DNA of 17,239 nucleotides, taken from the NCBI GenBank assembly GCA_017965495.1, contig JAGCPW010000088.1, positions 1-17,239 on the forward strand, given 5' to 3'. A program made the position numbers and the translations under genes. Positions 4,868 to 14,376 of this stretch are shown in pieces. Under the pieces are notes generated by a model that was given only the letters and a program-made list of their open reading frames with translations, did no database searches and was not told the DNA's origin. How positions within the stretch are numbered: the first letter of the stretch is position 1; each line of letters starts with the position of its first letter. The stretch comes from Eubacterium sp. (GTDB lineage Bacteria > Bacillota > Clostridia > Lachnospirales > Lachnospiraceae).

Positions 4868-5716
4868 ATGGCTGGAAAGTTGTATTTGTGTGCGACGCCT
4901 ATTGGAAACTTAGAGGATATGACATTTAGGGTGATTCGTACATTGAAAGAAGTAGATTTGATAGGCGCTGAAGATACTAGAAACAGTATCAAGCTTCTCA
5001 ATCATTTTGAGATTGAGACTCCTATGCAAAGCTATCATGAATTTAATAAATATGACAAAGCTAAAGAGTTAGTGCAGATGATGAAAGATGGCAAAAGTAT
5101 CGCGCTAATAACTGACGCTGGAACTCCTGGCATTTCAGATCCGGGAGAAGAGTTGGTAAAAGAGTGCCTTAAAAATGGTATTGAGGTTACTTCTTTGCCG
5201 GGGGCGAGTGCGTGCGTGACTGCGCTTTCTATGTCAGGGCTATCAAGCCAAAGATTTTGCTTTGAAGCGTTCTTGCCAAAGGATAAAAAGAAAAAAGAAA
5301 ATGTGCTAAAACAGTTACAAAATGAGACAAGAACGATTATAATATATGAAGCGCCTCATAGGCTTACAAAGACGCTAAAGGAACTTGAAGATGCGCTTGG
5401 AAACAGAAGAGTAAGTATAAACAGAGAGCTTACTAAAAAATATGAAGAATCATTTTTGACCACGCTAAAAGAGGCTAGAGAAAAGTACGAGGCAGAGGAG
5501 CCAAGAGGCGAGTTTGTCTTGGTGATTGAAGGCAAAGACCCAGAGGAACTAGACCAGGAAGAAAAACAGAGATGGGATGAAATGTCTTTGGAAGATCACA
5601 TGAAAATATACTTAGACCAAGGCCTCGACAAAAAGTCAGCCATGAAGAAAGTGGCAAAAGACAGAGGTGTGGCAAAGCGAGACATATATAACCAGTTAGT
5701 TCAGGAGGAAAAATGA
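4868..5716 (+). CDS. rsmI: 16S rRNA (cytidine1402-2'-O)-methyltransferase
   Basis: 282-aa ORF. Tetrapyrrole-methylase fold signatures: LYLCATPIGNLEDMT, AEDTR, SDAGTPGISDPG-like (TDAGTPGISDPG) and YEAPHR. Confidence 0.9.
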   Translation: MAGKLYLCATPIGNLEDMTFRVIRTLKEVDLIGAEDTRNSIKLLNHFEIETPMQSYHEFNKYDKAKELVQMMKDGKSIALITDAGTPGISDPGEELVKECLKNGIEVTSLPGASACVTALSMSGLSSQRFCFEAFLPKDKKKKENVLKQLQNETRTIIIYEAPHRLTKTLKELEDALGNRRVSINRELTKKYEESFLTTLKEAREKYEAEEPRGEFVLVIEGKDPEELDQEEKQRWDEMSLEDHMKIYLDQGLDKKSAMKKVAKDRGVAKRDIYNQLVQEEK

Positions 5717-8235
5717 AAGGTAAAATTCATTGGCCGTTAATTAAGAGAATACTTGGAACCCTACTTGTTTTGGCAGGGCTTGTTTTCTTACTTGTAAACT
5801 ATAAAGCGTGCTACAACGCACACAAGACTAGAGCATATGCAGATCCAAACCAAAAGTTAGTTAAGTTAAAGAGTAACAGTGTTATTAAGCAGAAGTTTTT
5901 AGGTCGTGATGGCGAGCTAAAGAAAATCGGAATCTGCATGGATAATATGGGTATGGAAAAAGCGACAGGTAGTGTGACAGTTACTATCTATCACAAAGGA
6001 AAAGAAATCTGTACGGATACCATTGAGGCAAACATTATTGAGACAAATAAGTTTGCTTGGTTTAGATTTTTAGATAGACCAGAGACAGAGGAAGATGAAG
6101 TATACACAGCAGTGTTTAAGTGTAACGACTTTAAAAATGCACAGGGCTTTGGCGTGTATGTTTCAAGTGTATTTAATCCATATGTTACAGAACCTGGAAC
6201 TATAGATGGAAAATCTACTCTTAAAACTGATAATGTAAGAATTAGAATGTCATTTATGAATTATGATATTGCATTGTTTATAAAGATGGCACTAATTCTA
6301 TTAATTGGAATAATTCTTATCTGGCTTCCATACGGAAGAATTCAAGAATTTATAAAGAAGAAAACAAACAAAGAAATTGATCTTCAAAAATGGATTTCAA
6401 GAGCATTCTTTGTTACAACACCACTTACAGCATACTTCATTATGGAACTTCTCTCGAAGCATACTATGTCATATGTGGAGGGCAAACTTCTAACTATTGA
6501 GGGATGGTATAACATGATGATTTATGCCATCATTTTGGCAGCGGCGTATGCTATCACTAACAGAACACAGTACGCGTCATTAATCACATGGTCGCTCACA
6601 TTAGTAGTTGGTTTGACTAACTATTATGTAACAGCATTTAGAGGAATTCCAATATTAGTTCAGGACATTATGTCTATTGGCACAGCTAAGAATGTGGCAG
6701 CAGGATATGTTTATGAATTTGATATGTGGGTACTTTGGGGCGTGGCGTTATTTGCGGCAGCCGCAGGTACGATGCTCGGTTTAAAACCATATAAGGGTGT
6801 TAGATTAAAACTTAGATTTATCCCAGTACTTATCGGTGTGGCTGGACTTATCTTTGGATATTGGTTCTTTGTTCAAACAGAGATTGTGGCAAAGAGCGGT
6901 ATTGAGGATAGTCAGTGGAAACCACAACTTACATATAGAAAGAATGGTACAGCGCTATCGTTCTTAACTTCTTGGAAGTATATAAAGACTGAAAAGCCAA
7001 AGGGATATTCAGTGGATAAGGTTAAGGAGTTAACCAAGAATTATAAATCTGACGTTACTTCAAAAGACAATGCAACCAAGAAAAAGATGCCAAACATCAT
7101 TGCTATTATGAATGAGTCTTTGGCGGACTTTACATACGACGGTGAGCTTAAGACTACTGAAGATTATATGCCATACTTAAGAGCGCTTAAGAAAGATGCA
7201 GTTAGGGGACAACTATTTGTATCGATCGAGGGTGCCAACACAGCAAACTCAGAGTTCGAGTTCTTAACAGGAAACAACATGGCATTCTTTGCTCCAAGAG
7301 CAGTGCCATACAACAACTTGCTAAGTGGAATCTTGCCTTCGATGACAAGAACACTCAAGATGCAAGGATACACAGGTAACAATTCATACCATCCATATAA
7401 GAGAGATGGTTGGAACAGACCTAATGTTTACTCATATCTTGGATTTGATAACTTCTATTCAGAAGAGCACTACAAAGATGCGAAGTACACAAGAAACTTT
7501 GTATCGGACGCTAGTGATATGAAGCAGATTATCAAAGATTATGAGGCTGAGAAAAAGAAGAGCAAAGCTCCTTACTATCAGTTTAACGTTACTGTTCAAA
7601 ACGACGGTGGTTATATAGGACAGCGAGGCAAAGTAGATGTAGATGTTAAGGTTACAACATCAGGACTAAGTACAGAAGAGAACAACCAGTACATGACATT
7701 GGTTAAGCAGTCTGACGATGCCTTCAAAGAATTAGTAGAACATTATAAGAAAGTGGATGACCCTACAGTTATCGTAATGTTTGGTGATCACCAGCCACCT
7801 CTAGTAGAGCAGTTCTACGAGACATTGTTTAAGAAGAAACAGTCTGAATTTACAACAGAGGATACAGCTAACTGGTATTCAACACCATATGTAATTTGGG
7901 CTAACTATGATATAGAAGAAAAAGAAAATGAGAATATGAGTTGTAACTATTTATCATCATATGTTCTTGATATGCTAGGTGCAGATGTCACTGGCTATAA
8001 CAAGTACTTGATGGACTTGAAGAAAAAACTTCCAGTGGTTACAGCACTATTCTACAAAGGCGACGATGGCAAGTTCTATGACATTGATCAGAAGTCAAAA
8101 TATTCGAAAGACTTGAATGATTATGCTATAATTCAGTACAACGAATTGTTTGATCAAAAGAACAGAGTGGATGATTTCTTCTTCTTGAAGGGTGGAGATT
8201 ATTACATCGAGCCAAAACAATTCTTTAATGAATAA
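5713..8235 (+). CDS. LTA synthase / sulfatase-family (alkaline-phosphatase superfamily) polytopic membrane protein with an N-terminal extension
   Basis: 840-aa ORF. AGGAGG at 5703-5708; the ATG overlaps the rsmI stop (ATGA). One N-terminal TM is followed by a soluble segment of about 150 aa, then a multi-TM block, then an extracytoplasmic sulfatase-like domain (NIIAIMNESLADF ... MFGDHQP). Confidence 0.75.
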   Translation: MKGKIHWPLIKRILGTLLVLAGLVFLLVNYKACYNAHKTRAYADPNQKLVKLKSNSVIKQKFLGRDGELKKIGICMDNMGMEKATGSVTVTIYHKGKEICTDTIEANIIETNKFAWFRFLDRPETEEDEVYTAVFKCNDFKNAQGFGVYVSSVFNPYVTEPGTIDGKSTLKTDNVRIRMSFMNYDIALFIKMALILLIGIILIWLPYGRIQEFIKKKTNKEIDLQKWISRAFFVTTPLTAYFIMELLSKHTMSYVEGKLLTIEGWYNMMIYAIILAAAYAITNRTQYASLITWSLTLVVGLTNYYVTAFRGIPILVQDIMSIGTAKNVAAGYVYEFDMWVLWGVALFAAAAGTMLGLKPYKGVRLKLRFIPVLIGVAGLIFGYWFFVQTEIVAKSGIEDSQWKPQLTYRKNGTALSFLTSWKYIKTEKPKGYSVDKVKELTKNYKSDVTSKDNATKKKMPNIIAIMNESLADFTYDGELKTTEDYMPYLRALKKDAVRGQLFVSIEGANTANSEFEFLTGNNMAFFAPRAVPYNNLLSGILPSMTRTLKMQGYTGNNSYHPYKRDGWNRPNVYSYLGFDNFYSEEHYKDAKYTRNFVSDASDMKQIIKDYEAEKKKSKAPYYQFNVTVQNDGGYIGQRGKVDVDVKVTTSGLSTEENNQYMTLVKQSDDAFKELVEHYKKVDDPTVIVMFGDHQPPLVEQFYETLFKKKQSEFTTEDTANWYSTPYVIWANYDIEEKENENMSCNYLSSYVLDMLGADVTGYNKYLMDLKKKLPVVTALFYKGDDGKFYDIDQKSKYSKDLNDYAIIQYNELFDQKNRVDDFFFLKGGDYYIEPKQFFNE

Positions 8236-8244
8236 AATAATATA

Positions 8245-8430
8245 AGCTGTAGTCACGACCATTTGGTCAGAGGAAAGTTCGGTGAGAATCCGACGCAGTC
8301 TATCCCTACTGTATTTGGGACGAACGGGAGAATGCTTCACAGGCACCTTAGTAGAGTGATCATAAGTCAGAGTGCTCAGACTATAGCCACATTAGTTCGT
8401 AGGCAAGACGAATTAGCACTAGACCTTTTA
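8245..8430 (+). promoter_or_regulatory. Cobalamin (B12) riboswitch-like aptamer (boundaries approximate)
   Basis: AGAGGAAAGTTCGGTGAGAATCCGACGCAGTCTATCCCTACTGTA (8270-8314) matches the conserved cobalamin-riboswitch core (GGGAA..GGTGnnAAnTCC..GC.G..CCC..ACTGTA). AAGTCAGAG (8365-8373) resembles a B12 box and GCCAC is at 8386-8390. It lies directly upstream of an ECF/DUF4430 operon. I could not fold it completely by eye. Confidence 0.7.
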
Positions 8431-8454
8431 TAGGTTTGGTTTGTTAATATATTA

Positions 8455-8486
8455 AAAAGTCTTGCGAAAGCAAGACTTTTAATTTT
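8455..8486 (+). terminator. Intrinsic terminator, the probable expression platform of the riboswitch
   Basis: Arms AAAAGTCTTGC (8455-8465) and GCAAGACTTTT (8470-8480) flank a GAAA loop and are followed by AATTTT. The terminator ends 21 nt before the ATG at 8507. A second copy of GCAAGAC at 8403-8409 could pair with GTCTTGC (8459-8465) as an antiterminator. Confidence 0.8.
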
Positions 8487-8506: not shown

Positions 8507-9574
8507 ATGAAGAAAATTATTAGTATGATTACCGCTATTGCACTAGCGCTTACTTTAGTTTTTGTGCCAGTAAATGCACAAGCGGCCACTGCCAAGAGTG
8601 CTTACATTACAGTGGAAAAATTAACTATTGGACAAGGACTCCTAGTTCAGCCTACAAAGGCTGAGATAAAAGATGGAGATACTCTCCAGACTGTTTTTGA
8701 GAAAGTAATGAAAGATGCTGGATATGAAACGGTGGTAGATACTCAATACGGATACTATCTAACAGGCATTAAGAATGCTGATTCAGGAAAGATTGATATT
8801 CCAAAAAAGATTTCAGATATGCCTGATTATGTGAGCAGTTATGAGTGGGAAGGTCAGACATTCTCTACTACATATGTAGCGCCATCTAATGAAAACAATG
8901 ATGGAAACTTAAGTGCTCCAGACTTAAACCAGTATGCGTACAATGCTATGTCAGGCTGGATGTTTATGGTAAACAATAAAGGCGCGGCAGAAGGCGCAGA
9001 TAAATTATTAGTAAATGACGGAGATGTCATTAGACTTCATTTCTCAGTTTTTGGCTGGGGCGATGATGTTGGAATTGGATTTAGTGATTCTAATTTGAAA
9101 CTTGCAAACAAGGACGAGTTAGTTAAAAAGATTGCAAATGTAAAAGATGATCAAACATTTATGAGCATAGCTGCTGCCAAGAAAGCATACGAAGACGGCG
9201 TGAAAGTACTTGAGAAATATGACGCTACAGATGCTGAAGTAGCAACTGCAGTTAGCGCTATTGCTAAGTACGAAAAGCCAGCAGAAGTAAAAGTGGCAAG
9301 AGCGTCTATTAAGAGCATCAAAAACATCAAAGGCAAAAAAGCAAAGATTACAGTTAAGAAGGTAACAGGTGCCACAGGATACGTATTCAAGTATTCAAAA
9401 TATAAGAGTTTTAAAAAAGCTTCAAAGAAGACTACAACTAAATTAACTATCAAAACTAAGAAGTTTAAGAAAAAACAAAAATGCTACGCCAAAGTTCAAG
9501 CATACAAAAAAGTGAACGGCATCAAACACTTTGGTAAGTGGAGCAAGGTTAAGAAAGTTAAAATTAAAAAATAA
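8507..9574 (+). CDS. Secreted DUF4430 (transcobalamin beta-domain-like) protein with a C-terminal Lys-rich Fn3-like domain
   Basis: 355-aa ORF. GGAGGAA RBS at 8494-8500. Type I signal peptide (..VNAQA|AT). DUF4430-type pattern: ITVEKL..IKDGDTL..VFEKV...SGWMFMVNN...LLVNDGDVIRLHF. The C-terminal ~95 aa (GKKAKITVKKVTGATGYVFKYS...YAKVQAYKKVNG...WSKVKKVKIKK) resemble the small Fn3-like module common in Clostridia. Confidence 0.6.
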   Translation: MKKIISMITAIALALTLVFVPVNAQAATAKSAYITVEKLTIGQGLLVQPTKAEIKDGDTLQTVFEKVMKDAGYETVVDTQYGYYLTGIKNADSGKIDIPKKISDMPDYVSSYEWEGQTFSTTYVAPSNENNDGNLSAPDLNQYAYNAMSGWMFMVNNKGAAEGADKLLVNDGDVIRLHFSVFGWGDDVGIGFSDSNLKLANKDELVKKIANVKDDQTFMSIAAAKKAYEDGVKVLEKYDATDAEVATAVSAIAKYEKPAEVKVARASIKSIKNIKGKKAKITVKKVTGATGYVFKYSKYKSFKKASKKTTTKLTIKTKKFKKKQKCYAKVQAYKKVNGIKHFGKWSKVKKVKIKK

Positions 9575-9583
9575 TAAGCAGTA

Positions 9584-10873
9584 ATGAAAAACAACATCAT
9601 TAAAAGATTATTTATAATATGTTTAGCGTTAACAGTAGTTCTTCCGGGGACTACTGTTAATGCTAATATTGTATTGTCGAAGAGTGAGACATCAAAATAC
9701 ATAAATGCAGTTGCTCAAAGACAATTAAGAGAAGTTAAAAATCCATCACATAGTTCGGCAGGGGGAGAGTGGACAGTGATGGGGCTTGCCAGAGCAGGCA
9801 AGATTACAAACAACTACAAAAACATTTACAAAAAGAACTTGAAAAAGACTTTGGATAATACAAATGGAGAGTTATCCAAGAATGCATTTACAGAATATTC
9901 CAGAACAGTAATCGCACTTACATCTATTGGCGAGAATCCATATAACTTCTATGGATACGATGTGATTAGTCCACTAGCAGAAGTGGACAATGTAATAAAG
10001 CAAGGAATGAATGGACTTGCTTACGCACTTATTGCACTAGAGTGTGGTGATTACGATAACGTTAGTCCAAGAGCTGGATATGATGGCAAAGTTGGCAACA
10101 TAGAAAAATATAAAAATTCGCTAGTTAGTTCAGCGCTACCAAATGGTGGCTGGGCACTTTTTGGAAAAAAGGCTGATGTAGATATGACAGCTATTGCTAT
10201 TCAGGCACTTGCTCCTTTTTATAAAGAGAGCAAAGTGAAAAAAGCGATAGACGAAGGGCTAGAGATAATATCCAAAAAACAAAAAGACACTGGCGGATTT
10301 GAAACAATGGGAAACGAAAACTGCGAGAGTTCATGCCAGGTGCTAACAGCAATGTCTTCGCTTAGAATTAGTGTTAAGGATAAAAGATTTGTCAAAAAGA
10401 ATCACACAGTTTTGGATTCGCTTATGAGCTATTACCACAATGGTTCGTTTAGGCATTTAAAAGGTGGAATGGCAAATCAGATGGCAACAGACCAAGCCCT
10501 ATACGCTTTGGTTGCATATAGAAATACGTTGGCAAATGACCCTCCACTTTTCAATATGAAAAAAGTGGCGATTAAGAAAAAGGCTAGAAAGCCTGCGTCA
10601 AAGAAAAATAAAACAAAATTTAAGAAATCAACAGTCGTTAAAAGCGATGATCAAATAAAGAAAGAAAAAGAAACAAAGAAAAGCAAAAAGAAAATAAGTA
10701 CTAATAAAAGCGAGCCTACTTCTGAAGTGAAAGCAGAAGAAACTACTAAACAAAATCAAAAAACTAAAGAAGATAAGGCTAGTCCTGTTTGGTTTTGGAT
10801 AGGATTGGCGGTAATAATGGCCGCAGGAATTGCGTTTACTATTTATAAAAAGGTAGGAAGAAAAGATGTTTAG
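9584..10873 (+). CDS. Surface-anchored prenyltransferase/squalene-oxidase-repeat-like (alpha/alpha-toroid) protein
   Basis: 429-aa ORF. Signal peptide (..TTVNA|N). Recurring toroid-repeat-like motifs AGGEW (aa 59-63), NGGW (187-190), TGGF (236-239) and NGSF (286-289). Lys-rich low-complexity linker at aa 325-400. C-terminal TM helix PVWFWIGLAVIMAAGIAFTIY followed by a basic tail. Confidence 0.6.
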   Translation: MKNNIIKRLFIICLALTVVLPGTTVNANIVLSKSETSKYINAVAQRQLREVKNPSHSSAGGEWTVMGLARAGKITNNYKNIYKKNLKKTLDNTNGELSKNAFTEYSRTVIALTSIGENPYNFYGYDVISPLAEVDNVIKQGMNGLAYALIALECGDYDNVSPRAGYDGKVGNIEKYKNSLVSSALPNGGWALFGKKADVDMTAIAIQALAPFYKESKVKKAIDEGLEIISKKQKDTGGFETMGNENCESSCQVLTAMSSLRISVKDKRFVKKNHTVLDSLMSYYHNGSFRHLKGGMANQMATDQALYALVAYRNTLANDPPLFNMKKVAIKKKARKPASKKNKTKFKKSTVVKSDDQIKKEKETKKSKKKISTNKSEPTSEVKAEETTKQNQKTKEDKASPVWFWIGLAVIMAAGIAFTIYKKVGRKDV

Positions 10874-11363
10874 AAACAATAGAGCAGCCAGAATAATTTT
10901 CCCACTTATCATCATTGCACTTTTAGTGGCAGTGATGGAGTTTGTGGACTTTAAAAAAGAAGAAAAGAAAGATGTCATTATTGGAAAGTGTAGTGTTTCA
11001 ATAGATTGTAAAACTGTGCTAAAAAATAGAGATACTTTGGAGATGGAACTAAGAGATAAAGTACCAAAAGATGGAGTTATCTTAAAAGAGACAAAAGTAG
11101 ATCTTCACAAGGGAGATACTGCATATGACATTCTATATAAAGTGACAAAAGATAAAAATATTTCTATGGAAAGTTCTGATACTGCAGGAAACAAGTATGT
11201 AAAAGGAATTGATAATTTCTACGAGTTTAGCTGTGGACCAGAATCGGGGTGGCTTTACCAGGTGAATGGCAAAAAACCTAACAAGAGTTCAAGTGAGTAT
11301 AAAGTAAAGAGAAACGATGTGATTGCATGGAAATTTACTTGCAAAAAGGGAGACGTGAAATAA
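10866..11363 (+). CDS. Membrane-anchored DUF4430 (transcobalamin beta-domain-like) protein
   Basis: 165-aa ORF overlapping the previous stop by 8 nt. N-terminal signal-anchor (RNNRAARIIFPLIIIALLVAVMEFV). Canonical DUF4430 pattern: SVSIDCKTVL..GVILKETKVDLHKGDTAYDIL...YVKGIDNFYEF..GPESGWLYQVNGKKPN..SSEYKVKRNDVIAWKFT. Confidence 0.7.
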   Translation: MFRNNRAARIIFPLIIIALLVAVMEFVDFKKEEKKDVIIGKCSVSIDCKTVLKNRDTLEMELRDKVPKDGVILKETKVDLHKGDTAYDILYKVTKDKNISMESSDTAGNKYVKGIDNFYEFSCGPESGWLYQVNGKKPNKSSSEYKVKRNDVIAWKFTCKKGDVK

Positions 11364-11367
11364 AACG

Positions 11368-12228
11368 ATGAAAGATGAGTTTGGGAGATTTCATCCCATA
11401 GCAAACTTAATATTTTTTATCGCGGTCATAGCATTCTCAACGTTTTGGATGCAGGCTGGAATGATAGCCGTGTCGTTTGTGTGCGCCACGGTTTATTATT
11501 TTATGCTCAAAAAAAGCGAGGGCATCAAATACTTTTTGACAGTTTGTGTGGCAATGCTTATTGCATCCATTGTAAATCCTCTATTTTCACACAGAGGAGA
11601 GACAATACTATTTAGACTTCCTACAGGAAATCCAGTGACGTTTGAGTCAATAATGTTTGGACTTTTGGCGGGCGTGATTTTGGGCGAAGTGCTTTTATGG
11701 TTTTCTATGTTTAACAATGTGATGGAGGACGACAAATGGACAGCTACTATAGGGAAAATTGCTCCAACCATTTCAATGATTATAACAATGGTGCTAAGGT
11801 TTGTTCCAAAATACACTAAATTCACAAAAAAGACTAGGGACATTCAAGTAGCCAATGGATTTGACAGTGGAAGAAAAATCAAAAATGGAATGCAAGTGTA
11901 TTCTATTACAGCCACATGGGCACTTGAGACATCCATAGACACTGCAGATTCTATGAAATCTAGAGGGTATGGAAAAACAAAGAGAACAAATTATCACAAT
12001 TATAAATTTGAGATAAGAGATTTGGTTTTTGTTTTGTGGGTGATAGCGCTTAGTGCACTTATTTTATACATGGCAAACGTAGATAAAATACACACATTCT
12101 TTTATCCAACGCTTAGGAATAAAGAATCAGTGATAGTTTTAGTGGCATATATCATTCTTTGCATAACACCAATATTAATTAACATATGGGAGACAATAAG
12201 ATGGCGTATATTGAGATCAAAGATTTAA
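11368..12228 (+). CDS. ecfT: ECF transporter transmembrane (T) component, CbiQ/EcfT family
   Basis: 286-aa polytopic ORF with the EcfT-type coupling-helix motif ...TADSMKSRGYG. It lies directly upstream of a double ABC ATPase and an S component. Confidence 0.75.
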   Translation: MKDEFGRFHPIANLIFFIAVIAFSTFWMQAGMIAVSFVCATVYYFMLKKSEGIKYFLTVCVAMLIASIVNPLFSHRGETILFRLPTGNPVTFESIMFGLLAGVILGEVLLWFSMFNNVMEDDKWTATIGKIAPTISMIITMVLRFVPKYTKFTKKTRDIQVANGFDSGRKIKNGMQVYSITATWALETSIDTADSMKSRGYGKTKRTNYHNYKFEIRDLVFVLWVIALSALILYMANVDKIHTFFYPTLRNKESVIVLVAYIILCITPILINIWETIRWRILRSKI

Positions 12229-13529
12229 AATTTAAATATCCACAAAGTGAAAGAGAGATTCTCTCCGGCATCAATTTAAGAGTTGAAAAAGGAGAGATTG
12301 TAGTAGTGTGCGGAAAAACAGGAAGTGGAAAGAGCACACTGCTTAGACTTTTGAAAAAAGAAATAGCTCCAGCGGGAGAAATGAGTGGAGAAATAAATTT
12401 TGACGCAGAAAAAATAGGATTTGTATTTCAAAATCCAGAGCATCAGATAGTGACAGACAAGGTGTATGGCGAACTTGCTTTTGCGCTTGAAAACGAGGGA
12501 GTGCCTACAGATGAGATTAAACTTCGAGTGGCAGAGATATCTGAATATTTTGGAATTACAGATTGGTATTTCAAAAAAGTAGATGAGCTTTCTGGTGGAC
12601 AAAAACAGATTTTAAATCTTGCATCAGCTATGGTGGCAAACCCGGAAGTATTAATATTGGATGAGCCAATTGCTATGCTAGATCCTATAGCAAAAGAATC
12701 TTTGCTTCACTTGCTTGGAAGAATCAACAGGGATTTTGAAACTACGATTATAATGGCAGAGCACGACGTTAAGAAAGTATCGTACTTAGCAGACAAGATT
12801 GTGGCAATAAAGGATGGAATGATCTCAGATGATGTAAGTGAATGGTTAAAGGAAGAAGTAATAGAGTCAAACTCAGAAGAGACAGAAAAGAATACATCAC
12901 TAGAGGGTAAGAATATTTGGTTTAGATATCATAAAAACGACCCAGATGTTTTGAGAGGGCTAAGTTTTAAAATAAGCGAGGGAGAAACATTTTGCATGTT
13001 AGGTGGTAACGGAACTGGAAAGACCACAGCATTACTCACCATAAGCAAAGTGTTAAAGTCCTACAGAGGAAAGGTAAAGACTGATAAAAAGATTGGATTA
13101 ATGCCTCAAGATGCTAAGCAATTGTTTTGCTGCGAGTCAGTGAGAGAAGAACTAGATAGCGTATACGAAGATGAAAAGAGCAAAAGTGAAATAATAAACA
13201 CCATGGGCTTGGAGCACTTACTAGAAATGCATCCTTACGATCTAAGTGGAGGAGAGCAGGAAAAATTAGGCATAGCAAAGGTGTTGTCAACTAATCCAGA
13301 TATCATTCTTCTGGATGAGCCTACAAAGGGATTAGATATTTTTCTCAAAAAAGATATAGCCCAATTGTTTGAAGGACTAAAGAAACAGGGAAAAACTATA
13401 GTAGTAGTTACACACGACATTGATTTTTGTAAGAGAGTGGCAGATAGATGTGGACTTTTTGCCCAGGGCGAGTTGATAGGAGTAAGTTCCACAAAGAAAT
13501 TCTTTAACAATATGAAGTTTTATAAGTAG
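12201..13529 (+). CDS. Fused ECF ATPase (EcfA-EcfA'-like tandem ABC domains)
   Basis: Domain 1: Walker A GKTGSGKST, Q-loop FQNP, signature LSGGQKQ, Walker B LILDEP, H-loop AEHD. Domain 2: GGNGTGKTT, LSGGEQEK, ILLDEPTKGLD, VTHD. I prefer the start at 12201 (MAYIEIKDL) because GGGAGA at 12188-12193 sits 7 nt upstream. The ORF track's ATG at 12186 has no RBS. Confidence 0.85.
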   Translation: MAYIEIKDLKFKYPQSEREILSGINLRVEKGEIVVVCGKTGSGKSTLLRLLKKEIAPAGEMSGEINFDAEKIGFVFQNPEHQIVTDKVYGELAFALENEGVPTDEIKLRVAEISEYFGITDWYFKKVDELSGGQKQILNLASAMVANPEVLILDEPIAMLDPIAKESLLHLLGRINRDFETTIIMAEHDVKKVSYLADKIVAIKDGMISDDVSEWLKEEVIESNSEETEKNTSLEGKNIWFRYHKNDPDVLRGLSFKISEGETFCMLGGNGTGKTTALLTISKVLKSYRGKVKTDKKIGLMPQDAKQLFCCESVREELDSVYEDEKSKSEIINTMGLEHLLEMHPYDLSGGEQEKLGIAKVLSTNPDIILLDEPTKGLDIFLKKDIAQLFEGLKKQGKTIVVVTHDIDFCKRVADRCGLFAQGELIGVSSTKKFFNNMKFYK

Positions 13530-13534
13530 GAAAG

Positions 13535-14197
13535 ATGAGAAGTTTTACAGGAAACGAACTAAATAGCATGTTTGGCGACAGACTGTATTTGATAGTGTCG
13601 GTGGCATTAATTGTACTAGCCATCGTAGTTTTCGTGCGCAGTTTTGAGAAAAAGAAGCCTGGCACAAAGGACGTGGTTATGCTTTCAGTAATGGTGAGTT
13701 TGGCTGTGGTGGGTAGACTTGTATTTTTTATGATTCCTCAGTTTAAACCGTGCGCAGCAATCATAATCATCACCGGAATAATGCTTGGAAAACAATCAGG
13801 TTTTTTGTGTGGAGTACTTACGGCATTCATCTCTGATTTGTTCTTTGGAATGGGACCTTGGACTGTTTGGCAGATGATAGCCTTTGGAATAATAGGTGTG
13901 TTATCAGCACTAATATTTAGCGAAGAGCGCATAGAAAAAATGGGAGACTTCGGCAAACTAATGCTTTGCATATATGGTTTTATCGTGACATTCTTTGTCT
14001 ACGGAATAATAATGGACACTGCTACAGTGTTTATGATAACGGACAAGCCAAAGGTAGCCACATTTGTAGCAACATACTCTGCCGGAATAGTGTTCAATAT
14101 GATTCACGGAATTTCGACATTTGTCTTCCTATATTTAATGGCAAATCCGCTCAGCAAAAAAATAAAAAGAGTTTTGATTAAATACAATAATAGATAG
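13535..14197 (+). CDS. ECF transporter substrate-specific (S) component, candidate cobalamin/corrinoid-specific (CbrT-like by context)
   Basis: 220-aa very hydrophobic ORF with 6-7 predicted TM helices and an AGGAAAG RBS. It is the last gene of the riboswitch-controlled ECF operon. Substrate assignment rests on context only. Confidence 0.65.
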   Translation: MRSFTGNELNSMFGDRLYLIVSVALIVLAIVVFVRSFEKKKPGTKDVVMLSVMVSLAVVGRLVFFMIPQFKPCAAIIIITGIMLGKQSGFLCGVLTAFISDLFFGMGPWTVWQMIAFGIIGVLSALIFSEERIEKMGDFGKLMLCIYGFIVTFFVYGIIMDTATVFMITDKPKVATFVATYSAGIVFNMIHGISTFVFLYLMANPLSKKIKRVLIKYNNR

Positions 14198-14341: not shown

Positions 14342-14376
14342 GCGGACCAAATATAAGTTTGGTCCGTTTTATTTTT
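14342..14376 (+). terminator. Rho-independent terminator closing the B12 operon transcript
   Basis: 9-bp stem CGGACCAAA (14343-14351) / TTTGGTCCG (14358-14366) with loop TATAAG, followed by TTTTATTTTT. Confidence 0.85.

Follow-up and report, generated by a model that had tools for sequence, protein, structure and literature searches.

Introduction

The vertebrate cobalamin (vitamin B12) carriers transcobalamin (TC), intrinsic factor (IF), and haptocorrin (HC) combine an alpha/alpha toroid of family PF01122 with a beta domain of the SLBB superfamily (PF14478, also termed DUF4430), as in the structures 2BB5, 2PMV, and 4KKI. It was shown that the alpha and beta domains of human TC, when expressed separately, assemble into holo-TC only on addition of cobalamin, and that the isolated beta domain binds cobalamin and cobinamide alone (PMC5599065); the assembly of split human TC is therefore a proof of principle for a carrier made of two chains. 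The SLBB superfamily was defined by Burroughs, Balaji, Iyer, and Aravind in 2007 (Biol Direct 2:4, PMC1796856), who reported bacterial TC-like SLBB domains fused to alpha/alpha toroids, as well as operons with a second SLBB paralog and CbiO- and CbiQ-like genes, for which they predicted B12 scavenging among Gram-positives of low GC content, and who already proposed a bacterial origin of animal TC. In this work, we have analyzed two overlapping open reading frames (ORFs) for a toroid protein and a DUF4430 protein, located at positions 9584-11363 of a 17,239-nucleotide (nt) stretch of Eubacterium sp. DNA (contig JAGCPW010000088.1, assembly GCA_017965495.1, family Lachnospiraceae), which is referred to in its entirety as the window. 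The pair lies in an operon for a transporter of the energy-coupling factor (ECF) type.

ECF transporters are defined in textbooks by the absence of an extracytoplasmic binding protein. In Lactobacillus delbrueckii the ECF module is a shared one, and we know of no extracytoplasmic partners reported for its ECF-CbrT transporter. The crystal structure of this transporter is 6FNP; it transports cobalamin and cobinamide, hemin does not compete, and CbrT was co-expressed with the ECF module from a separate, pre-existing plasmid, p2BAD_ECF (PMC5997447). Another related system is that of L. sakei, studied by Verplaetse et al., in which lsa1836-1840 encode an S component, a fused A-A' ATPase, a T subunit, and separate secreted TC-beta-like and TC-alpha-like proteins; Lsa1839 and Lsa1840 were modelled in 2019 as an alpha/beta heterodimer beside the ECF transporter (bioRxiv 10.1101/864751).

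The gene pair and its relatives

We consider it fairly probable that the ORF pair encodes the alpha-like and beta-like halves of an extracytoplasmic corrinoid-capture module for the dedicated ECF-CbrT-type importer of the same operon. The computational basis of this reading comprises domain identities and folds, topology signals, the operon and its gene order, fused orthologs, the riboswitches of orthologous operons, and a CbrT-like S component. The toroid ORF (9584-10873, plus strand, 429 amino acids [aa]) belongs to a run of co-directional genes in the window, and the DUF4430 ORF (10866-11363, 165 aa) follows on the same strand. Both share the 8 nt ATGTTTAG at 10866-10873 of the plus strand: the DUF4430 ATG at 10866 lies within the toroid frame, the toroid TAG ends at 10873, and a Shine-Dalgarno-like AGGAAG is found a few bases 5' of the ATG. 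An initial annotation of this DNA had reported this overlap, which the ORF coordinates bear out, together with recurring AGGEW, NGGW, TGGF, and NGSF motifs in the toroid protein. These start at residues 59, 187, 236, and 286, and the resulting spacings of 128, 49, and 50 aa agree with the approximately 130 and then 50 aa that had been given; indeed, every sequence fact stated in that annotation was confirmed.

Relatives were retrieved by a pattern scan of GTDB contigs with one genome per species. The 452 relatives obtained are mostly from Clostridia (Lachnospiraceae, Oscillospiraceae, Eubacterium), with a few others, such as Varibaculum and Ellagibacter, and their source is largely metagenome-assembled genomes (MAGs) from human, ruminant, and rabbit gut. 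All locus counts given here refer to the best 80 of these 452 relatives, taken as species-level loci (numbered with the prefix L). The order toroid, DUF4430, EcfT, and EcfAA' (often fused to S) is nearly universal among them. EcfT was found in 70 loci, the ATPase in 65, and the S component in 58; several loci are truncated by the end of their contig, and this is the probable cause of many of these absences. In 65 of the 80 loci, toroid and DUF4430 protein are encoded by two genes that lie next to each other, commonly with an overlap of 4-8 nt or 1-20 nt apart, and the two are adjacent or fused in 73. A single fused ORF of 606-626 aa takes up this operon position in eight loci (L010, L011, L014, L016, L017, and L019-L021), which belong to 44-50% identical relatives from Eubacterium or Lachnospiraceae, and about 30 further protein clusters are of the fused type.

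The identical gene pair was found on three independent contigs, and the close relatives L004-L006 have the identical 8-nt overlap. Together with the 65 loci in which the genes are separate, this rules out a sequencing frameshift, so that the two-gene state is genuine. The initial annotation had described the locus as a TC architecture apparently split into separate polypeptides. This has the wrong polarity, because separate chains are the majority state in bacteria and the fusions (8/80) the minority; separate chains are the ordinary bacterial state and do not result from fission of an animal protein.

Fold and sequence affinities of the toroid protein

From its sequence features, the toroid protein was predicted to start with a signal peptide (residues 1-27, 9584-9664) that has a basic n-region, a hydrophobic core, and the cleavage-type end VNA. 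The alpha6/alpha6 toroid ectodomain (residues 28-326, 9665-10561), recognized by AlphaFold2 (AF2), Foldseek, and the family profile, carries the GG[WF] repeats and the motif DVDMTA (residues 198-203). It is followed by a tether of Lys-rich, low-complexity composition (residues 327-401, 10562-10786), the equivalent of which in the fused ortholog P0062 has a predicted local distance difference test (pLDDT) value below 50, and by a putative C-terminal transmembrane anchor (residues 402-421, 10787-10846) consisting of the hydrophobic stretch VWFWIGLAVIMAAGIAFTIY, with the basic tail KKVGRKDV behind it; the equivalent segment of P0062 is predicted to be helical. All these segments are read from the plus strand.

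Using an alignment of 76 sequences, AF2 modelled residues 28-326 as a 12-helix all-alpha toroid with a pLDDT of 97.5 and a predicted template modeling (TM) score of 0.94. In a Foldseek search of this toroid alone against the PDB, E values near 1e-4 were obtained for three groups, namely, B12 carriers, prenyltransferase beta subunits, and class II terpene cyclases. The TM values, which in this search are normalized to the query, were 0.55-0.63 for TC, HC, and IF (2bb6, 7qbe, 4kki, 2pmv), 0.54-0.59 for the beta subunits of farnesyl- and geranylgeranyl-transferases, and 0.31-0.52 for class II terpene cyclases, with squalene-hopene cyclase (SHC) and drimenyl-diphosphate synthase (DMS) at 0.31-0.40. 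The alpha6/alpha6 barrel of the eukaryotic B12 carriers is therefore present in this protein, at the level of the fold only. The TC-like toroid that had been proposed was thus recovered, with TM values of 0.59-0.63 to TC, but the prenyltransferase beta subunits came out nearly equal; since the TM ranges are so similar, the toroid alone cannot tell a carrier from an enzyme.

A different picture is obtained at the sequence level, where the toroid appears nearest to the repeats of class II terpene cyclases. The family profile matched only SHC and DMS repeats in the PDB (E 7e-9 to 1e-7), so that the GG[WF] repeats are no chance pattern. In this comparison, DVDMTA corresponds to the catalytic motif DVDDTA of SHC, both being located at the same helix start. 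Its third-position Asp, which is equivalent to the general acid of SHC, and its Thr are invariant in all 76 family members. The fourth DxDD position is occupied by Met, Ile, Val, or Leu in 74 of the 76 members, by Ala or Thr in two, and by Asp in none, and the general-acid motif is therefore incomplete throughout the family.

These data bear on a possible enzymatic role of the 429-aa protein as a member of the terpene cyclase/prenyltransferase superfamily, an idea that the profile matches, the alignment of DVDMTA on the SHC motif, and the invariant Asp favor. It is also suggested by the name under which the identical protein appears in NCBI records of Eubacterium sp. MAGs, "terpene cyclase/mutase family protein." We nevertheless regard an enzymatic function as highly improbable. 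There is a single toroid of about 300 residues and not the two-toroid (beta-gamma) body of SHC-type cyclases, the TM values to SHC and DMS are low, and the fourth DxDD position is never Asp. Furthermore, sequence features indicate that the protein is exported and tethered to the membrane outside the cell, no isoprenoid genes are nearby, and the constant neighbors are DUF4430 and a B12-type ECF transporter under riboswitch control. As to prenyltransferases, no Cys is conserved across the broad family and no alpha-subunit gene was detected in a Pfam scan of the window. The initial annotation had named a toroid closer to enzymes, with an intact catalytic pocket, as a finding that would speak against it: half of this holds, as the nearest sequences are terpene cyclase repeats, whereas none of the 76 members has a complete DxDD motif. 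Given its context, the NCBI name is probably misleading; the window toroid is no terpene cyclase, nor does it belong to the eukaryotic PF01122 family. A thioester reading of the segment NCES..Q, similar to the thioester-containing domain (TED) of alpha2-macroglobulin, was also considered and rejected, the Cys not being conserved in the broad family. The spacing between Cys and Gln in this segment also differs from that in the TED thioester motif, CGEQ.

Several searches for a sequence relationship to the TC alpha domain were negative. A PF01122 match was absent at E values of up to 1 for both the window toroid and P0062, while human TC scores 381 bits; the family profile yielded no TC, IF, or HC match in the PDB, and a phmmer search of the PDB with the toroid was negative as well. 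The hhalign probabilities were 0.15-0.6% when a narrower toroid alignment (A2) was compared with human TC and when A2 and a broad alignment (A1) were compared with an alignment of mammalian TC. A protein search with human TC returned mammalian TC2 only, and the TC profile is therefore shallow and the hhalign test weaker.

Other observations concern the inside of the toroid. In an hhalign alignment that is not significant, the DVDMTA segment (10175-10192 of the window) is placed on the TC segment GNVYSTPLALQ (the N224 region), which hints that this position may be the start of a ligand-contact helix in toroids, SHC, and TC alike. Polar residues are conserved at the N-termini of alternate toroid helices, the pattern that would be expected of a ligand-binding face. 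Residues 196-308 gave a weak match to the NCBIfam entry "SCO2321 family membrane protein" (E 3.8e-11, far below the cut-off), which suggests that related exported toroid proteins may exist in Streptomyces.

The DUF4430 proteins

The 165-aa protein, which is the product of gene 3 (10866-11363, plus strand), was predicted to consist of a signal-anchor helix (residues 10-27, 10893-10946) and a DUF4430/SLBB domain (residues 83-158, 11112-11339; PF14478, E 5.3e-17). An alignment places this domain colinearly on its TC beta counterpart, and the G-W motif at TC W377 is part of the match. Cobalamin contacts of TC include T134, Y137, Q138, D176, N224, and W377. When the human TC sequence, which was confirmed against PDB 7qbf/2bb5, was compared with Pfam, its beta domain matched PF14478 (25.0 bits; cut-off, 23.8) and its alpha domain PF01122. 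The equation of DUF4430 with the TC beta-domain family, made in the initial annotation, is thus correct. The SLBB/DUF4430 domain that forms the C-terminal part of the eukaryotic B12 carriers therefore has its counterpart here. The single soluble chain of these carriers, in which a flexible linker joins the two domains, does not, as the domains come from different ORFs and each product has a membrane anchor of its own. On both chains, the ectodomain is predicted to lie on the outer face of the membrane.

A second SLBB paralog is encoded by gene 1 (8507-9574, plus strand), the product of which is a putative secreted protein of 355 aa with an N-terminal DUF4430/SLBB-like domain (PF14478, E 4e-6, residues 144-179) and a Lys-rich C-terminal domain. 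It can be aligned over its length to both the 165-aa protein and the beta domain of TC, and homologs are located upstream in at least 28 related loci. At other loci, ORFs of 1000-1900 aa with extra DUF4430 and sometimes toroid domains are found just upstream of the toroid gene (L030 253-5808, L037 508-5841, L041 500-5947, L052 76-5793, L058 44-5788, and L081 61-5832). These are preceded by a cobalamin riboswitch wherever upstream DNA is present and look like multidomain surface proteins for corrinoid binding.

Fused orthologs

The structural comparison with the carriers was also made with both domains present in one chain. The AF2 model of P0062 was confident in its domains, and tether and membrane hairpin were disordered. 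In a Foldseek search of the PDB with this model, the top 15 matches were TC, IF, and HC structures (E 2e-10 to 9e-8), with both domains aligned in the same order, whereas the best enzymes, terpene cyclases, followed at 1e-5, approximately 100-fold or more behind. The beta domain of P0062 had TM values of 0.74 to the TC beta domain (5no0) and of 0.70-0.72 to the DUF4430 structure 3u7z of R. gnavus.

In P0062 and P0064, toroid and tether are followed by a transmembrane helix, a short basic loop of the KKKNK type, a second helix with a lipobox-like GGC/TGC end, and DUF4430; the membrane hairpin of P0062 corresponds to residues 445-487. The fusion thus corresponds to an in-frame read-through of two membrane-anchored genes. 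Since the domains are joined through a membrane hairpin, the fusion shows co-localization at the outer face and not a soluble linker of the TC type. The second helix resembles a lipoprotein signal peptide, so that the fused protein might be cleaved into two chains after export. A direct secreted fusion is represented by P0086, in which DUF4430, Ig-like, toroid, and dockerin domains follow each other, that is, in the opposite order; it belongs to a cluster of 4576 sequences. The TC architecture proposed for this locus stands as far as the toroid and DUF4430/SLBB content, the tight coupling, the B12-type ECF operon, and the fused orthologs are concerned, but sequence homology to the TC alpha domain was not found.

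The same data can be used to weigh the possibility that both proteins act independently, with the DUF4430 proteins binding the corrinoid and the toroid in another surface role, such as binding of another corrinoid precursor, shielding or remodelling of the ligand, or wall anchoring, and without a TC-like two-chain sandwich. Such independent action would be compatible with the binding of cobalamin and cobinamide by the isolated TC beta domain (PMC5599065), with the P0062 model, which lacks the closed arrangement of TC, with the absence of detectable homology between toroid and TC alpha domain, and with operons in which DUF4430 occurs in several copies and large surface proteins contribute additional toroids. 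It is considered rather unlikely, as toroid and DUF4430 are adjacent in 73 of the 80 loci, often with 4-8 nt of overlap, and fused in eight of them, proteins of the P0086 type carry both domains in one secreted chain, and the conserved polar residues at alternate toroid helices would resemble a ligand face. The domain placement in the P0062 model, which served as a stand-in for a multimer prediction, was treated as uninformative on the interface and not as evidence against it.

ECF transporter genes and the cobalamin-riboswitch-like leader

The operon comprises six genes at 8507-14197, which encode the gene 1 product, the toroid protein, the DUF4430 protein, EcfT, a fused EcfA-A', and an S component, all on the plus strand. 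The EcfT-type transmembrane coupling subunit (11368-12228, 286 aa) was assigned on the basis of a weak match to 4hzu_T and 4huq_T (E 6e-3) and synteny. The fused EcfA-A' ATPase (12186-13529, 447 aa) has two ABC domains, with PF00005 found twice (E 5e-51), and matches TIGR04520 (E 2e-85), TIGR04521 (E 2e-80), and TIGR01166 cbiO (216 bits). For the S component (13535-14197, 220 aa; PF07155, E 3.5e-14; PF12822, E 7e-9), the best and sole significant PDB match was 6FNP_A (E 3e-9 over 162 residues). This 182-residue membrane protein was taken to be CbrT, judging by its size and its character as an S component; for 6FNP, the papers confirm no more than its identity as ECF-CbrT. By similarity alone, the window protein is assigned to the CbrT family of the ECF-CbrT (CbrTUV) B12 importers. 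A terminator-like hairpin (14342-14367, plus strand; 11-bp stem, five GC pairs, T tail) is found at the operon end.

A leader with similarity to cobalamin riboswitches lies within the 271-nt spacer upstream of the operon (8233-8410, plus strand). It is divergent, with a weak match to Rfam RF00174 at 8233-8392, and a profile made from the riboswitches of orthologous operons outside the clade of the window matched 8255-8410 with an E value of 3.3e-14. Compared with L008, L009, L012, and L018, a hairpin between GCCACG and GGAAGGCGC is lost in the clade of the window; everything else is kept across this clade, and so is a stem at 8418-8440, the loops of which vary. The leader is followed by an intrinsic-terminator-like hairpin, GTCTTGC-GAAA-GCAAGAC with a T run (8454-8486, plus strand), which was read from the sequence, is likely to be the expression platform, and is conserved in L004, L005, and L007. 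We take the leader as a functional or recently functional variant riboswitch, and it may represent a compact variant.

For orthologous operons, Rfam cobalamin riboswitches scoring above the gathering score were found directly upstream of the first operon gene in three of 13 loci and then in 13 of 13, giving a total of 16 of the 26 loci scanned. With a derived profile, seeded from the first three of these Rfam riboswitches, the element was detected in 40 of the 80 loci, always on the coding strand. In 39 of these 40, it lies 20-450 nt upstream of a first gene that encodes a toroid or DUF4430 protein; the match in L061 is weak and 1.4 kb upstream.

The nature of the ligand has to be discussed in the light of the L. 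sakei work, which suggests that the same pair may capture heme, or heme plus corrinoids, for the ECF importer. In a deletion mutant of the five-gene ECF cluster of L. sakei, whose secreted TC-alpha-like and TC-beta-like proteins are separate, the uptake of 57Fe-hemin was reduced 5- to 8-fold, and complementation or overexpression reversed the defect or boosted hemin uptake (bioRxiv 10.1101/864751). However, at least 40 of 80 species have a cobalamin riboswitch upstream of the orthologous operon, the structure nearest to the S component is that of ECF-CbrT (6FNP), a transporter not competed by hemin, and no heme-related gene was found in the window by Pfam and NCBIfam scans. In addition, the effect in L. 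sakei was seen only at micromolar hemin, and corrinoid transport was outside that study. Corrinoids are thus favored over heme because of the cobalamin riboswitches and the CbrT-like S component, and we consider a heme-binding pair at this locus improbable.

Further features were noted around and beyond these genes. In most of the more distant loci, A, A', and the CbrT-like S component are fused in a single ORF of 800-985 aa (L029 9144-11759; also L031, L034, L049, L069, L070, and many others), and an S component attached in this covalent way is not easily accommodated by models that have S components come off and replace one another on a shared ECF module. Immediately upstream of the six genes, 5713-8235 of the window encodes an 840-aa multi-pass membrane protein with a C-terminal PF00884 domain (E 1.7e-24), possibly of the lipoteichoic-acid-synthase or phosphoglycerol-transferase type, Pfam stating only "Sulfatase." A promoter-like site for the B12 operon is located inside the 3' end of this gene (8104-8132). 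The window edge at 1-50 contains the 3' part of a tRNA gene (Rfam RF00005, 29.5 bits).

Discussion

The proposed capture module would operate as follows; the ligand, the heterodimer, the binding order, and the hand-over to CbrT are steps that we infer. When B12 is scarce, the leader (8233-8410) would let transcription pass the terminator (8454-8486), and the six genes at 8507-14197 would be expressed. Translational coupling through the 8-nt overlap would help to provide matched amounts of toroid and DUF4430 protein. The toroid protein would be exported, lose its signal peptide, and remain attached through its C-terminal anchor, with the Lys-rich segment of about 75 residues as a flexible tether, while the DUF4430 protein would be kept on the same membrane face by its N-terminal signal-anchor. 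By analogy with TC, corrinoid binding would begin at the small beta-type domain, followed by closure of the toroid's open face over the ligand. The S component, which is CbrT-like, would receive the ligand from this membrane-proximal complex, with import being driven by EcfT and EcfA-A'. The secreted 355-aa paralog encoded by gene 1 would probably act as an outer capture or relay protein.

A number of findings weigh against a TC-like capture module. The window leader scores 16.7 bits with RF00174, below the gathering score of 31.5, and has lost a peripheral hairpin. According to Foldseek, the toroid fold shows hardly any preference for TC over the beta subunits of prenyltransferases, and the TC-normalized TM value increases only from about 0.47 for the toroid alone to about 0.51 for P0062. 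No sequence homology between the toroid and the TC alpha domain was detectable by phmmer, the family profile, Pfam, or hhalign. In the fusions, the domains are connected by a membrane hairpin, the second helix of which is lipobox-like; this indicates co-localization and not a direct linker between the domains. In the AF2 model of P0062 the beta domain is not placed on the toroid as in holo-TC (root mean square deviation, 12-14 A). The one homologous-type system with genetic tests, lsa1836-1840 of L. sakei, affected heme uptake. Finally, a literature search found no report of binding or interaction for any bacterial member, and for the biochemical characterization of the Gram-positive proteins it gave nothing beyond PMC1796856 and bioRxiv 10.1101/864751.

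The locus shares many features with the operons described by Burroughs et al., as it encodes an exported SLBB protein and a toroid, a second SLBB paralog, a CbiO-like ATPase, and a CbiQ-like membrane subunit. However, that paper stresses SLBB-toroid fusions, whereas the window has two membrane-anchored chains, the commoner form in the clade (65/80). The cobalamin riboswitches at half of the surveyed loci and the CbrT-like S component go beyond the 2007 description. The L. sakei cluster resembles it in gene content, with the same two-chain idea next to ECF genes, but was assigned to heme uptake from mutants; a further DUF4430 gene and the riboswitch-like leader are additional features of the window operon. 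With the vertebrate carriers, the window locus has in common a toroid plus a beta domain of the SLBB type, and in the fused orthologs the N-to-C order of the two is also the same; the window pair differs in that it is two-chain and membrane-anchored, its toroid is not PF01122, it has no receptor-binding role, and its ligand binding is a prediction.

Similar comparisons can be made for the transporter and the toroid. Like ECF-CbrT, the window operon encodes an S component related to the 6FNP chain, an ECF T subunit, and two ATPase domains, but its module is dedicated, with both ATPase domains in one polypeptide, and the operon includes genes for three exported accessory proteins. The class II terpene cyclases and prenyltransferase beta subunits share with the window toroid the GG[WF]-repeat alpha/alpha fold and a DxD-TA motif at the same helix start, whereas the window protein is single-domain and exported, with an incomplete DxDD motif and no isoprenoid context. 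The cobamide relay of Bacteroides is a Gram-negative system of unrelated folds that feeds a TonB-dependent outer-membrane transporter. Cell-surface proteins of these gut bacteria (BtuG, BtuH, and partners feeding BtuB) are described to capture corrinoids before the membrane transporter (PMC13616437), and the relay is a functional analogy only.

Both the idea of an extracytoplasmic binder and that of an origin of the animal carriers have already been hypothesized in print, and since they are found in Burroughs et al. and Verplaetse et al., the central idea of the initial annotation and its evolutionary corollary are not new. The window locus is a further example of a published arrangement that is common in these bacteria and does not establish a new principle. 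Its value lies in one well-resolved example together with the survey figures, namely, 65 split versus eight fused loci and a cobalamin riboswitch in 40 of 80.

More tentatively, and with somewhat less than even confidence, it can be proposed that these systems form a widespread clostridial class of ECF transporters with their own binder, a membrane-tethered, two-chain, ligand-closed "bacterial transcobalamin" that derived its alpha chain from terpene-cyclase-like toroids and feeds corrinoids to CbrT, and that its fused forms were the source of animal TC, IF, and HC. If true, this would amend the view of ECF transporters as free of binding proteins and would offer, for the question of how the animal B12 carriers arose, a bacterial counterpart that is amenable to experiment. 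Furthermore, if the pair closes around a corrinoid, gut Firmicutes would possess a high-affinity surface capture step ahead of ECF-CbrT, which would bear on the competition for B12 in gut and rumen.

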